From an uncultured Candidatus Saccharibacteria bacterium (GTDB lineage Bacteria; Patescibacteriota; Minisyncoccia; Phycocordibacterales; CAIZIN01), in assembly GCA_964615805.1 (NCBI GenBank), contig CAZTQI010000001.1, positions 1-27,388 of the forward strand: a stretch of 27,388 nucleotides of DNA, in the 5' to 3' direction. Every line of letters begins with the position of its first letter. The stretch's first letter is position 1. This document shows, one piece after another, positions 1,082 to 11,495 of this stretch. The translations under genes and the position numbers were made by a program. The notes beneath the pieces were generated by a model that saw nothing but the letters and a program-made list of their open reading frames with translations, was not told the DNA's origin and made no database searches.

Positions 1082-1840
1082 CTACCTCTTGTCTCTAAAC
1101 AAAGTCTTAATGTATTCAGGATAACACCACCAGTGTTTTCCATCGGCTTCATTTTGAGGTGTGAGTGGAACAATCAACGGCTTCACTCCAAATTTTTTCC
1201 AAACAAATTCAAAAGCTGGCAATAAGACTTCTTCGGTGAATTTTTTCTCTTTACTTGTGAGCAAATAATTTTCAAACAAAATTCCATTTCTAATATAAAA
1301 AGCAAAAATATACTTATAATACTCCTTTGGATTTTTACCGAGTTTATGATAATCCTCTGAGCCATCGTATATTTCAAGACCTTCATAAAAGGTTTTTAGT
1401 GCTCGATGATGAAAATCAACTAAACTTTCACCCCACAATGTTTCAACGTCTTTAATCTTCTTCTTTTCATTTTTTCCACAAAGATCAATTATGTGCTCAC
1501 TACTAGTTATCATTTCATTATTGTCATTTCTGCCATGATAAAATACCATCTTAGCTAAAGATGCTTTATCAAAATTTGTCGTAACAAAAAGATCATCGGT
1601 GTATTCAAAAACTAAGGGTTTCAAGTTTATATCCTGTGAAGCTTTCCAAAAGTGAAAAAATGCCCAGTTTGATGTTGCAACATGAAAAGTACACAAGGCC
1701 CTCGGCTCATCTTTCAAGGGTATAGGCAAATTATCACCCAAATATTCCTCCACTCTCCTTCTCAACTCAGTATCATTCCACCTTCTCTCAAGCTCAGCTT
1801 TTGCTTCCTGTAGTGGTGTATAAATATCGTTTACGTTCAT
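1082..1840 (-). CDS. Hypothetical protein X, full copy A (252 aa)
   Basis: Intact ORF with a same-length paralog at 8462..9220. Differences between the two are mostly synonymous, which supports coding status. No functional motif recognised. Confidence 0.85.
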   Translation of the reverse strand: MNVNDIYTPLQEAKAELERRWNDTELRRRVEEYLGDNLPIPLKDEPRALCTFHVATSNWAFFHFWKASQDINLKPLVFEYTDDLFVTTNFDKASLAKMVFYHGRNDNNEMITSSEHIIDLCGKNEKKKIKDVETLWGESLVDFHHRALKTFYEGLEIYDGSEDYHKLGKNPKEYYKYIFAFYIRNGILFENYLLTSKEKKFTEEVLLPAFEFVWKKFGVKPLIVPLTPQNEADGKHWWCYPEYIKTLFRDKR

Positions 1841-1846
1841 TGTGGT

Positions 1847-1880
1847 TTATATTATACAGCTTGAGGAAAATAAGTACAAA
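1847..1880 (-). promoter_or_regulatory. X-module promoter, copy A
   Basis: Minus strand TTGTAC-17 nt-TATAAT, with the -10 (1851-1856) 10 nt from the ATG. Homologous blocks near 3261-3298, 5173-5212, 9227-9260 and 11455-11495. Confidence 0.7.
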
Positions 1881-1891
1881 AAAATAGCAGA

Positions 1892-3007
1892 TTAATCGAG
1901 AAAATACTGTGGAGTAACCACTTGGGCTTTTGCTGTGGGATATAATTTCAAAAACTTATTAAATACAACATTTTCTTTTGTCCACTTACACTCAAAAGCT
2001 TGAATGTCTCTATTTTTCTGAACAATAAAATCAATTTCAATTTTCTCTGTTGTCCTCCAGAAATATATGCGCGGTGGAAAGGTTTCAATCTCACCAGCTT
2101 TTAGAAGCTCCAAAAAAAACATGTTTTCAAAAACCATACCCTTATCCTCTCTTCCAGAAAGATTATCTACATTGTCAGCTATAACATTTCTTATACCGAG
2201 ATCAATAAAAAAAACTTTAAATGCTTTTCTCAGCTCATTTCTATGATTATTTGAAAACGACCTTACTATTTTTATGATATATGATTGCTCCAAAAGTTTT
2301 AAATATTTTTCAACTGTTGTACGACTTGTTTTTAAACTATTAGCTAGTTCATTCACCGAAACGAGTTGCCCAATTTGAAGTGCTAACATTTTAATCATGT
2401 CCTCAAACAATTGCGGACTTCTGATTGATTCAAATATGTATATATCCTTGTATAAATAATTAGTGGTAATATTTTTCAAAAGATTCTCTCTTGTCATCCT
2501 ATCTTCTTCACCTACAATAGCTGGGTACATTCCAACTCTCATATGTTCCAGAATATCTACAGTATCTATTTTTTTTGTTTTTTTAATTTCAGAAATTGAG
2601 AGAGGATAAAGTATAAACTCAAAAGACCTACCAGTGAGAGGCTCGTTTATTTTGTTAGCTAAATCAAAAGATGATGAACCGGTAGCAATAATCTGCACTT
2701 CCGGATATTTATCAATAAAAATCTTTATGATAGTCCCTATATTTTGAATTGTTTGAGCTTCATCAAAAACTACTATTTTTTTATTTAATACAAGTTCTTT
2801 CAGCTGATCTGGGTCACCTACAATAAAATGCTTTCTTACGCTAATTTCCTCGCAATTAAAGTATGCTCCGAGCTCTCCAAAATCCTTGATAATTTTTTTA
2901 GCCAAGGTAGTCTTTCCGGCTTGTCTTGGTCCAAATATTAAAATTGCCCTCTTTTTGAAAAGAAGCTCCTTGATTCTAGGCTCTATATTACGATCAAATA
3001 TAATCAT
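1892..3007 (-). CDS. AAA_14/DUF4143-type ATP-binding protein
   Basis: Walker A GPRQAGKT, Walker B FDEAQ, ATGSS, and C-terminal YFWRT...EIDFIV...AFECKW (PD-(D/E)xK-like) typical of this family. Confidence 0.88.
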   Translation of the reverse strand: MIIFDRNIEPRIKELLFKKRAILIFGPRQAGKTTLAKKIIKDFGELGAYFNCEEISVRKHFIVGDPDQLKELVLNKKIVVFDEAQTIQNIGTIIKIFIDKYPEVQIIATGSSSFDLANKINEPLTGRSFEFILYPLSISEIKKTKKIDTVDILEHMRVGMYPAIVGEEDRMTRENLLKNITTNYLYKDIYIFESIRSPQLFEDMIKMLALQIGQLVSVNELANSLKTSRTTVEKYLKLLEQSYIIKIVRSFSNNHRNELRKAFKVFFIDLGIRNVIADNVDNLSGREDKGMVFENMFFLELLKAGEIETFPPRIYFWRTTEKIEIDFIVQKNRDIQAFECKWTKENVVFNKFLKLYPTAKAQVVTPQYFLD

Positions 3008-3018
3008 GTATATATTAT

Positions 3019-3046
3019 ATAATTTGCATAAAAAAATGCAAATTAT
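3019..3046. promoter_or_regulatory. Perfect 11-6-11 palindrome abutting the -10 of the AAA gene (candidate operator)
   Basis: ATAATTTGCAT-AAAAAA-ATGCAAATTAT; minus-strand TATAAT at 3014-3019, ATG at 3007. Confidence 0.6.
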
Positions 3047-9968: not shown

Positions 9969-10019
9969 TTTCTACCTTTCTACTTTGTTTTTGTTGAAAT
10001 TTACTGTAAAATTAAGTGA

Positions 10020-10580
10020 ATGAATAATTTAAATAATGAAGCAAAAATTTTAATGACACTTCAAGATAAGGATATTTTCTCTATACCCCTAAATACTAAT
10101 AATATAATCTGGAAGGATCGCCCAACTTGTAAAATAGTTTTGTTCAACAATGAAGGCAACATTGCTTTAATTGGTAATAAGGTGAATGATTATTATCTTT
10201 TACCTGGAGGCGGTATTGATGATTCAGAATCATTACACGACGCAGTTAAGCGTGAATGCAGAGAAGAAACTGGATGTGAGATAATAATCGAAGATGGTTT
10301 AGGTATAACGGAAGATTACCGTGCTCGTGATAGTAAACACTCTGTTACTTATGGATTTATCGCAAAAGTAACAACACAGCACGAACCAACACTGACTGAA
10401 AGTGAAATTGATATTGGAGCTTATGTTAGGTGGATTTCACTACAAGAAGCAATTAACATATTCTTAATTCAAGAAAAAAATGTTAAGGCAGGTGAAGTAA
10501 AATTTTACAATACCTGCTTTAACATTGTTCGTGACCTATTCTTTTTGCAACAAGCCAAGAAAATAAGAACTAGATCTTAG
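10020..10580 (+). CDS. NUDIX hydrolase
   Basis: LPGGGIDDSESLHDAVKRECREETG. Confidence 0.92.
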   Translation: MNNLNNEAKILMTLQDKDIFSIPLNTNNIIWKDRPTCKIVLFNNEGNIALIGNKVNDYYLLPGGGIDDSESLHDAVKRECREETGCEIIIEDGLGITEDYRARDSKHSVTYGFIAKVTTQHEPTLTESEIDIGAYVRWISLQEAINIFLIQEKNVKAGEVKFYNTCFNIVRDLFFLQQAKKIRTRS

Positions 10581-11055
10581 TCCTTATCCTATCAATAATA
10601 AGACTTGTTGATATTTTTTCATTCTCATATCGAGGCAGATAGTTAACTTTAGTACCAGGTGAGACTAATGCAATATTATCCAATCTCGTCTTCAACTTAG
10701 CTGAATCTGCAGTCTCCTCACCAAACACAACAGTATTTGGCTTTAAAATACTTAGCACATCAATACTGCTCGGACTAAGATCAGATATAAAAGCAAAATC
10801 AACAAATCTAATACTTGCAATCATTTTTAATCGTTGCTCTTGATTAATTATTGGGTGTAAAGAATTTTTATATTTTTTTATATAAGAATCTGAAAGCACA
10901 GCAACAACTAATAAATCACCGATTAAGGATGCCTGCTCGAGTAGGTGTAAGTGGCCAACGTGAATGAGATCAAAACAACCCCCTACCAGTGTAAAAGTCT
11001 TACTCGAAGGTATGGAATTCTTAATTAAAATCAAATCATTATTTAACGTATTCAT
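10570..11055 (-). CDS. Cytidylyltransferase-like (HxGH) nucleotidyltransferase, RfaE/TagD-like
   Basis: GGCFDLIHVGH, ASIRFVD and ISTS. Start moved from 11112 to the ATG at 11055 (MNTLNN), which has a -10-like TAAAAT just upstream. Confidence 0.85.
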   Translation of the reverse strand: MNTLNNDLILIKNSIPSSKTFTLVGGCFDLIHVGHLHLLEQASLIGDLLVVAVLSDSYIKKYKNSLHPIINQEQRLKMIASIRFVDFAFISDLSPSSIDVLSILKPNTVVFGEETADSAKLKTRLDNIALVSPGTKVNYLPRYENEKISTSLIIDRIRTKI

Positions 11056-11213
11056 AATTTTTAAGGTACATTTTACTATCCTTACTATACAAAAATACTT
11101 TAAAATTGTCAATAAAAGTGTCTATGTAGTTAAAATATTTATACCATTAACTAGAATAAATAAAAAACACGCTCTGAATACTGAGGAAAAATTGGGTCAG
11201 CGCCATTTTTAAA

Positions 11214-11315
11214 TCAAAAACCCATCCACTTTTTTCTCAATTCAGGATCATTCCACCTTCTCTCAAGCTCAGCTTTGGCTTCCTGTAATGGTGTATAAAT
11301 ATCGTTTACGTTCAT
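11214..11315 (-). pseudogene. X 5' stub, copy E (33 aa, MNVNDIYTPLQEAKAELERRWNDPELRKKWMGF*)
   Basis: Hand translation. An apparent 1-nt deletion in the A run after codon 27 shifts the frame. Promoter homolog at 11455-11495. Confidence 0.9.
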
Positions 11316-11495
11316 TGTTCTTGTCCCGTTAGAGTTTTATTTAATAATCTTATTATCTTGCAATACTTAAATTTTTCCAAACCACCCCGAAGCTCAATAG
11401 TGTACCTGTGCTAAAACTTTAACGGGATGAATATAAAATTATCTTTAGAAATCGTGTTTACATTATACAGCTTCAGCGAACTTAACACAAAATAA

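Follow-up and report, generated by a model that had tools for sequence, protein, structure and literature searches.

The window examined here is a stretch of 27,388 nucleotides (contig CAZTQI010000001.1, positions 1 to 27,388) from an uncultured Candidatus Saccharibacteria bacterium, a tiny freshwater member of the Patescibacteria, the source assembly of which (GCA_964615805.1) comprises 688 kb in 119 contigs and is 75% complete. Within this window, the start of one protein-coding gene, here called X, occurs five times on the minus strand, with ATG codons at 1840, 3214, 5145, 9220 and 11315. Two of the copies are full-length genes (X_A and X_D) and three are short stubs (B, C and E), and accessory genes, here called cargo, lie between them. 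In transcription order, the locus reads stub E-cargo-X_D-cargo-stub C-cargo-stub B-cargo-X_A-cargo. Five X starts on one strand had been proposed in an initial annotation made from the letters alone, and its ATG positions and spacings were matched exactly by repeat finding, alignment and a genome search.

The repeat finding yielded a family of five direct repeats of 115 nt (1740-1854, 3114-3228, 5045-5159, 9120-9234 and 11215-11329) that are 78-94% identical to the reference copy and spaced by 1374, 1931, 4075 and 2095 bp. In the minus-strand alignment, the ATG and the next 85-105 bases are conserved in all five copies. When protein X (252 aa) was searched against the whole 688-kb assembly, it matched at exactly the five array positions. 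The two full-length matches are 95% identical, while the other three are restricted to residues 1-33, 1-35 or 1-43; the open reading frames (ORFs) of stubs B, C and E have 27, 35 and 33 codons, respectively. A hidden Markov model (HMM) of the X body (residues 45-252) gave no further match in the window, even at E<=1, and no body was found behind the stubs. The point at which homology to X ends differs between stub types (+69, +87, ~+105-125 and +139 of the 759-nt gene), the ends being concentrated within +69 to +139. In stub E, degenerate X homology continues to ~+139 (11177), and a 3' arm reaching to +139 is common to stubs C and E. Partial direct copies of the target gene thus bound each cargo block and an intact target stands at one end, as in tandem islands. 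The coordinates are collected in the table.

Table. Features of the X array and its surroundings in the window
Feature	Coordinates	Strand	Remarks
Terminator hairpin copy 2	14677..14716	-	left boundary of M16+GNAT cassette
Terminator hairpin copy 1 (ACCGCGCT..AGCGCGGT + T run)	12100..12140	-	right boundary of M16+GNAT cassette
hyp187, conserved upstream anchor gene	11496..12059	-	paralog of hyp190 (14727-15299)
Canonical X promoter copy (TGTATAAT -10)	11455..11495	-	~140 nt upstream of stub E; repeat family D3/D4
Stub E	11214..11315	-	X codons 1-28, 1-nt deletion, 33-codon ORF; junction in 6 independent contigs
Cargo 1	9306..11112	mixed	cytidylyltransferase-like 10570-11112 (-), NUDIX 10020-10580 (+), histidine phosphatase 9306-9968 (-); Pfam, NCBIfam
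Canonical X promoter copy of X_D	9224..9264	-	repeat D3/D4
X_D, full-length X (P0002, 252 aa)	8462..9220	-	
Cargo 2	5250..8350	mixed	radical S-adenosylmethionine (SAM)-SPASM 7055-8350 (-), 281-aa protein 5964-6809 (-), tetratricopeptide repeat (TPR) protein 5250-5972 (+); Pfam
Canonical X promoter copy of stub C	5171..5210	-	extra ~20-nt leader; repeat D3/D4
Stub C	5038..5145	-	35-codon ORF (P0124); TPR-stub C-SAHH junction in 4 contigs
Cargo 3	3297..4999	-	S-adenosylhomocysteine hydrolase (SAHH)-like NAD-binding protein 3863-4999, NUDIX 3297-3896; Pfam
Second promoter-like element (TGGTTTATAAT)	3243..3299	-	upstream of stub B; 57 nt
Stub B	3131..3214	-	X codons 1-27, then TAA
3' arm of stub B	3019..3130	-	common to L118/L122 stub; ends where variable cargo starts
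Cargo 4	1892..3007	-	AAA_14-DUF4143 ATPase; Pfam; PADLOC candidate defence family PDC-S01, E=3e-121
Canonical X promoter copy of X_A	1845..1884	-	repeat D3/D4
X_A, full-length X (P0001)	1082..1840	-	AAA-X_A-NTase junction confirmed by L116
Cargo 5	2..954	-	211-aa nucleotidyltransferase (NTase)-like protein 319-954, short-chain dehydrogenase/reductase (SDR) 2-349 (cut at contig end); Pfam

The same order of genes and stubs was found in a 26-kb contig of the Joint Genome Institute (JGI) and in an NCBI contig of a metagenome-assembled genome (MAG), L010, with an identity of 99.6% over 8.9 kb. Five more JGI samples yielded short contigs that hold hyp187-stub E-cytidylyltransferase or TPR-stub C-SAHH-like at 99.9-100% identity, and L116 carries AAA ATPase-X_A-NTase-SDR. 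Support for the junctions spans at least seven samples, drawn from JGI samples, the NCBI MAG and Logan contigs (L010, L102-L109 and L116). Window sequence is present in 24 public lake and freshwater runs. Public runs were compared in the form of assembled Logan contigs; one joint of these contigs is well supported (1802 to 9183), and the others, with 21-nt sides or unknown inserts, were not relied on. An assembly chimera, in which strain variants joined at the shared repeat would create the array, had been named in the initial annotation as a possible refutation and is rejected as very improbable. Contigs do tend to break at X_A (the 26-kb JGI contig and the window end), and the second X gene of L010 continues, from within an exact repeat, into the 3' flank of X_D. 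However, each stub junction and the AAA-X_A-NTase junction recur at 99.9-100% identity in several samples and assemblers, and a wrong turn at a repeat cannot yield a stub followed by unrelated DNA.

X heads and stubs in related lineages

Stubs were also found ahead of other cargo. In two JGI samples (L118 and L122) with an X that is 89% identical to the one in the window, the order is hyp190...hyp187-TPR (minus strand)-promoter-35-codon stub-Fic-terminator-promoter-X. The stub of L118 and the following 100 nt (1325-1529) are 80% identical over 206 nt to stub B and its arm (window 3222-3019), and this homology stops where Fic replaces the AAA ATPase of the window. L123, L124 and three contigs from the European Nucleotide Archive (ENA) carry a gene similar to the radical SAM gene of cargo 2 (rSAM431), an HExxH-like gene, a promoter, a 43-codon stub, a Shine-Dalgarno sequence and a different radical SAM gene for 377 aa (rSAM377); the X homology of the stub ends at +87. 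In the distant Moraniibacteriota genome L067, where X is only 40% identical, an independent stub with an in-frame stop matches the beginning of the X gene of that genome at 87% identity over 84 nt, and five genes lie between stub and full X. A comparison of the 45-aa head with the small proteins of a collection of 5.8 billion proteins returned five stub peptides, namely, two from the window and three others. Judged by these loci, the stub-type junction has arisen or spread in at least four lineages and with at least six sets of cargo. The earlier proposal that the 5' end of X serves as a reusable junction or homology anchor was borne out in that the same stub and arm precede different genes in the window and in L118/L122 and a further stub precedes rSAM377; the expected variation of cargo between anchors was seen in the exchange of AAA ATPase for Fic. 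The opposite case, single X genes with no stubs and invariant neighbours, did not apply to the closer relatives.

The less close lineages L119 and L121 possess a single X in a core neighbourhood (DnaK-DnaJ...M16-X-SET-HisK...TyrRS/TrpRS-AspRS-ScpAB). Within the genus, hyp190-hyp187-X was found in G003 (L110) and hyp187-X in L101. X is patchily distributed, being present in 9 of 61 related species genomes with one copy each and no stub. Among the genomes compared, the array is evidently a trait of a few close lineages and not of the X family. Two diverged full-length X genes, adjacent or within a few kb of each other, were seen in many unrelated Patescibacteria and other MAGs (L027, L034, L050, L051, L057, L060, L068, L070, L075, L081 and L082). 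Exact-pattern scans with a 45-nt degenerate core of the repeat found one JGI metagenome contig (L101) and none among viral contigs, so that there was no sign of a phage or plasmid carrier. A fragment resembling the C-terminus of a group II intron maturase/reverse transcriptase (IGWINYYG motif) lies directly downstream of X in L118 (3620-3849), and L007 has an IS66-family transposase upstream of the locus.

The ratio of nonsynonymous to synonymous differences (pN/pS) was ~0.05 for codons 2-27 in all pairs of heads, stubs included. The nucleotide conservation of the head is thus mostly due to strong purifying selection on the peptide, and the idea that this conservation alone proves mobility was rejected. 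Recombination is required only by an identical tract in L006 and L101 and by the discordance of heads and bodies. The X proteins of L006 (92% identical to X of the window) and L101 share 47% identity, yet their DNA is 100% identical from -3 to +96. The bounds of this tract are sharp, the sequences being unrelated upstream and ~50-60% identical downstream. In a set of 120 homologues, the head MNVNDIYTPL[QS]EAKAELERRWNDPEL keeps 24-26 of its 27 residues on X bodies that are only 34-47% identical to X_A (P0049, P0050, P0051, P0055 and P0105), while X bodies that are 75-80% identical share only 15-19 of the 27 head residues. Between stub B and the L118 stub, the synonymous divergence (pS) of the heads is 0.92 despite arms that are 80% identical, which places a junction between head and arm and gives the two parts different histories.

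The two full-length genes of the window are a mosaic as well. Their homology begins at -43; over the 5' two-thirds their DNA is ~88% identical, and between ~codon 160 and codon 248 (~260 nt) the identity rises to 100%. A contig from one lake run has an X_A-type gene behind the upstream context of X_D, and the depth specific to X_D is ~1 compared to ~5 for cargo. This indicates that one copy has been converted by the other in natural populations. Hybrid copies and conversion tracts at various places within the homology, as they are expected after insertion-duplication, were therefore found in the heads and arms of the stubs, in the tract from -3 to +96 and in X_A/X_D.

Recombination at the locus was also seen at a repeat other than X. 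A 41-nt intrinsic-terminator hairpin with exactly two copies in the genome brackets an M16 peptidase gene, a GNAT gene and two small ORFs. In two samples (L108 and L109), 15079..14677 is joined to 12140..10837, so that 12141-14676 (2.5 kb) is missing and the junction falls within the repeat. The same hairpin (690-734 and 2657-2699) brackets another GNAT-containing block in L006. The loss of the M16+GNAT block at this unrelated repeat argues for general repeat-mediated recombination and not for a recombinase specific to the X head.

Cargo, border elements and protein X

The cargo genes listed in the initial annotation were reproduced by Pfam. For the 211-aa NTase-like protein of cargo 5, a weak NCBIfam match to MntA-like proteins was obtained, and a JGI contig that continues beyond this block carries genes for a methyltransferase and a hydrolase. 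The G+C content of rSAM431 is 41-43% as compared to 25-33% around it and in most cargo. In 12 relatives tested, neither the SAHH-like gene nor rSAM431 was found, and the histidine phosphatase had distant representatives only. AAA_14-DUF4143 is a multi-copy family with 1-5 matches per genome in most species of the genus; within the window gene of this family, contigs from three runs leave the window sequence at ~2567-2569. At gene or cassette borders (3297-3310, 10570 and 12052), Logan contigs of several lake runs cease to match the window and continue into unrelated sequence. These loose ends suggest further structural variants, but could also come from related organisms. No recombinase or transposase domain was detected among the ORFs of the window by Pfam and domain searches, in agreement with the earlier statement that the window holds no recombinase. 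In three lineages, X or a stub is directly followed by a radical SAM gene, each time a different one, namely, rSAM431 (window 7055-8350), rSAM340 (L006 3834-4856) and rSAM377 (L123 656-1789). This adjacency hints at a functional link or at a preferred type of cargo.

A promoter-like block (TTTTGTAyTTATTTTCyTnAGGyTGTATAATATAAAC) lies upstream of copies A, C and D and in an extra copy at 11455-11495, which is homologous to the promoter and leader of the L123 stub. The second promoter-like element upstream of stub B (3299-3243) was 93% identical in blastn to L118 3555-3611, just downstream of the full X there; the 57-nt TGGTTTATAAT element is another short module common to cassette borders. Inside the cassettes, consensus-like promoters were recognised, for example, at 11112-11084 (TTGACA-17-TATAGT) and at 3042-3014 (10 of 12 positions matching). 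The search of the modules and leaders with Rfam gave no RNA family and only a sub-threshold sroB match at a terminator.

Protein X has no family in Pfam, NCBIfam or PADLOC. It has more than 400 homologues, nearly all of which are unnamed and mostly from Patescibacteria MAGs, and its conserved motifs are FHHR, LFEN and WWCYPE. In a confident AlphaFold model built with 45 homologues (predicted local distance difference test, pLDDT, 93; predicted template modelling score, pTM, 0.89), residues 3-37 form a helical hairpin at the N-terminus, with an alpha/beta domain after it. Foldseek gave no significant match for X in the PDB. In an exhaustive VIA search, all top matches were HUP-class Rossmann proteins, with modest Z scores of up to 7.5, and comprised class I LysRS, BshC, GluRS, TyrRS, ATP sulfurylase and nicotinamide mononucleotide (NMN) adenylyltransferases. 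A nucleotide-binding Rossmann fold of the HUP class is thus indicated by the model, which speaks for the fold class and not for the function. Nothing in the predicted structure suggests that X is a recombinase.

Possible origins of the array

With moderate confidence, the locus is interpreted as an additive hotspot for accessory genes that would be built by RecA-type insertion-duplication and gene conversion at an anchor of ~100 nt, the start of X. The N-terminal 27-35 residues of X are strongly constrained and would leave this stretch as the only one that stays 85-100% identical in DNA among diverged alleles and paralogs; as the only stretch of high identity, the head would be the preferred site of crossover and conversion. 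A single crossover between the resident X and incoming or excised DNA with a promoter, a 5' fragment of X and cargo (Campbell-type insertion-duplication) would then place a truncated stub ahead of the cargo and leave X intact behind it. Repeated insertions, unequal crossing-over and gene conversion between the copies could have produced the five-copy array. The reverse reaction or unequal exchange between heads would delete, duplicate or move blocks, and a double crossover in two flanking anchors would swap cargo between strains. The circular donor with its single crossover, the dependence on RecA and the route by transformation are parts of the scheme that we infer. Since other parts of the genome encode RecA and a ComEC homologue, natural transformation would be the most plausible supply of DNA.

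Such insertion-duplication would account for the direct orientation of all copies and for the intact X at the downstream end. It would also account for the 5' position, as the head is the only part with sufficient identity and the only fragment that can be duplicated without inactivating X, and for the ends of the stubs at +69 to +139 with their mosaic of upstream types and 3' arms. The order stub-cargo-full X, in which direct duplicates flank the insert, was found in the window, in L118/L122 and in L067. A number of observations weigh against this interpretation. The ComEC match (Competence domain, G000:C4:5335-6096) holds one in-frame TAA. Measured against model bacteria, an anchor of ~100 nt with 80-95% identity is short for RecA to recombine efficiently. 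Sixty species-level relatives are without a stub, and in the assembled contigs neither a circular intermediate nor an empty site nor a stub-to-stub excision product was observed. The only back-joint, at the end of L010, leads from an X_A-type gene into the 3' flank of X_D inside a ~240-nt exact repeat, where a wrong turn of the assembler is equally possible. The three stubs of the window show 5-13 differences in 26 codons, both among themselves and relative to X_A/X_D; thus, they are not all recent products of one lineage, and block transfer or conversion from other alleles must be assumed. Finally, stubs C and E have a common 3' arm and stubs B and E a common upstream element, and the same pattern could have resulted from the duplication of pre-existing stubs.

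Three other origins were weighed. Site-specific recombination in trans, by a host tyrosine recombinase (Xer-like or other) acting on a core within the 5' module of X, as with IMEX elements, Acinetobacter pdif modules or the MccH47 island, is quite unlikely. It would fit the direct orientation of all repeats and the narrow zone of the stub ends, and islands without a recombinase of their own that use host functions are known (PMC3191183; pdif modules, PMC9947245). The genome encodes one tyrosine recombinase, the sole PF00589 match (contig C21, G000:C21:4514-6346); a search of the 75%-complete assembly gave no serine recombinase. The C21 match is split into two parts ~1.2 kb apart within one open frame of 748 codons, which may reflect an insertion or an intein-like element in an Xer-type gene. 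However, the end points of homology vary between stub types, the conversion tracts cover the whole module (-3..+96) and ~260 nt elsewhere in X_A/X_D, and the same locus recombines at the terminator repeat. Moreover, the module has neither an obvious core with inverted arms nor an unusual single-strand fold, and no recombinase travels with the cassettes of the window, L118, L122 or L123.

The decay of tandem paralogs is unlikely as well. According to this explanation, X was repeatedly duplicated, each copy heading a gene set of its own, and three copies lost their bodies by deletion, while promoter and start were kept to drive or regulate the genes downstream. Adjacent full-length X paralogs occur in at least 10 of 80 loci of other lineages, L049 has a frameshifted X directly upstream of an intact X, and in L123 no promoter other than that of the stub is visible, with the Shine-Dalgarno sequence of rSAM377 directly adjoining the stop codon of the stub. 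Still, a remnant of the body follows none of the stubs, and three to four independent stub types all end in the first 18% of the gene; deletion of tandem duplicates at random points, as considered in the initial annotation, is at odds with this clustering. Strong separate cargo promoters after stubs B and E, the same stub and arm ahead of different cargo in two lineages, and heads and arms that come from different X alleles also speak against decay. Selection for the stubs themselves, as leader peptides for the cargo or as free N-terminal helical hairpins, is regarded as improbable. In each stub, a -10 box and the ATG are preserved together with 22-35 intact codons of X, nearly all substitutions in codons 2-27 are synonymous (pN/pS ~0.05), and residues 1-37 form a separate helical unit in the model; in L123, moreover, the cargo has no visible promoter besides that of the stub. 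This low ratio would be equally expected, though, for heads copied from functional X alleles, and nonsynonymous states of stub C (WEDKELK) are present in real X alleles. The C-termini of the stubs all differ, with stops at codon 28, 34, 36 or 44 and frameshifts, the stop of the L067 stub falls inside the conserved WRRW motif, and no stand-alone stub was found in genomes without this type of locus.

A bolder version of insertion-duplication at the X start is that the head, consisting of the promoter and ~100 nt, serves as the address tag of recombinase-free cassettes in freshwater Patescibacteria. Circles excised by head-to-head recombination would be released, taken up by competent cells and inserted again into any head. 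We consider this conceivable and rather doubtful. If it were true, genes would be shared in an integron-like manner wholly by homologous recombination, and the conservation and homogenisation of the head would partly be maintained to keep the address readable.

Comparison with known systems

The genomes of Patescibacteria are very small and hold few classical mobile elements, and these bacteria are believed to rely on the uptake of DNA. The locus would be a concrete example of how accessory genes can be gained, swapped and lost without an integrase at a conserved gene start of ~100 nt, with cargo that ranges from a cluster for a ribosomally synthesised and post-translationally modified peptide (RiPP) to nucleotide-modifying enzymes, a candidate defence ATPase and Fic. 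It would imply a feedback loop: constraint on the protein leaves an island of DNA identity, recombination concentrates on this island, and even very different alleles are thereby made still more alike there. For annotation, it follows that short hypothetical ORFs that resemble the start of a neighbouring gene can mark cassette boundaries. The literature offered analogues but no description of such an array in Patescibacteria.

Insertion-duplication of the Campbell type is known from naturally transformable bacteria and from suicide-vector genetics. As in the X array, direct duplicates flank the insert, a promoter with a 5' fragment gives a truncated upstream and an intact downstream copy, and the process is reversible by recombination between the repeats. 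In contrast to these cases, it would have happened here naturally and repeatedly at one gene, with ~100 nt of imperfect homology, and would have led to a five-copy array with varied cargo.

The small microcin H47 (MccH47) island of E. coli has no recombinase of its own and is flanked by extensive imperfect direct repeats, in which hybrid junctions form at several identical segments; it was reported to recombine without RecA (PMC3191183, PMC5426353). It resembles the X array as a recombinase-less island bounded by long imperfect direct repeats. Its repeats are not a gene start, however, and it is a single island and not an array. Tandem islands at tRNA genes are described for the tycheposons of Prochlorococcus (bioRxiv 10.1101/2020.12.28.424599) and flexible genomic islands for streamlined freshwater bacteria (PMC10872708). 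They share with the X array the setting in streamlined plankton, cargo between partial copies of the target, a target that is restored at one end and cargo that varies between strains. They differ in having their own integrases (tyrosine recombinases, other types elsewhere) and in targeting the 3' part of tRNA genes, whereas in the X array a protein gene is targeted, at its 5' end and together with the promoter; no island-encoded integrase was found in the window or in the available parts of the stub loci L118, L122 and L123.

Integrons likewise array small accessory-gene cassettes at one chromosomal site, and the initial annotation had called the array functionally integron-like. This was not supported. 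No intI adjoins the array, as none of the window ORFs contains a recombinase domain, and there is neither an attI nor an attC site. The module, folded as single-stranded DNA of both strands, showed no attC-like fold (z -1.3 to +0.8 versus shuffles), and its repeats are coding sequence. The cassettes of the X array lie on both strands and several have strong promoters of their own, unlike the promoterless one-way cassettes of integrons. Each of the defining integron features that were tested is absent from the locus.

Modules without a recombinase that are moved by a host function are also represented by the pdif modules of Acinetobacter plasmids, which rely on 28-bp XerC/XerD sites in typically alternating orientation (PMC9947245, PMC12907356). 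The repeats of X differ from these as direct 100-nt copies of coding sequence; no core with inverted arms like that of a dif site was evident in the module, although no model of the dif site of this lineage was searched. Orphan toxin-immunity modules behind rhs or cdiA genes are similar to the X array in that each displaced variable module is headed by a short conserved part of the main gene, which provides homology for recombination (PMC4927057). This part continues in frame into a variable C-terminal toxin domain and does not include the gene start (PMC4927057). In the X array, by contrast, the repeated piece is the gene start itself, which meets a stop codon after 27-43 codons, and separate, unrelated genes that have starts of their own make up the cargo.

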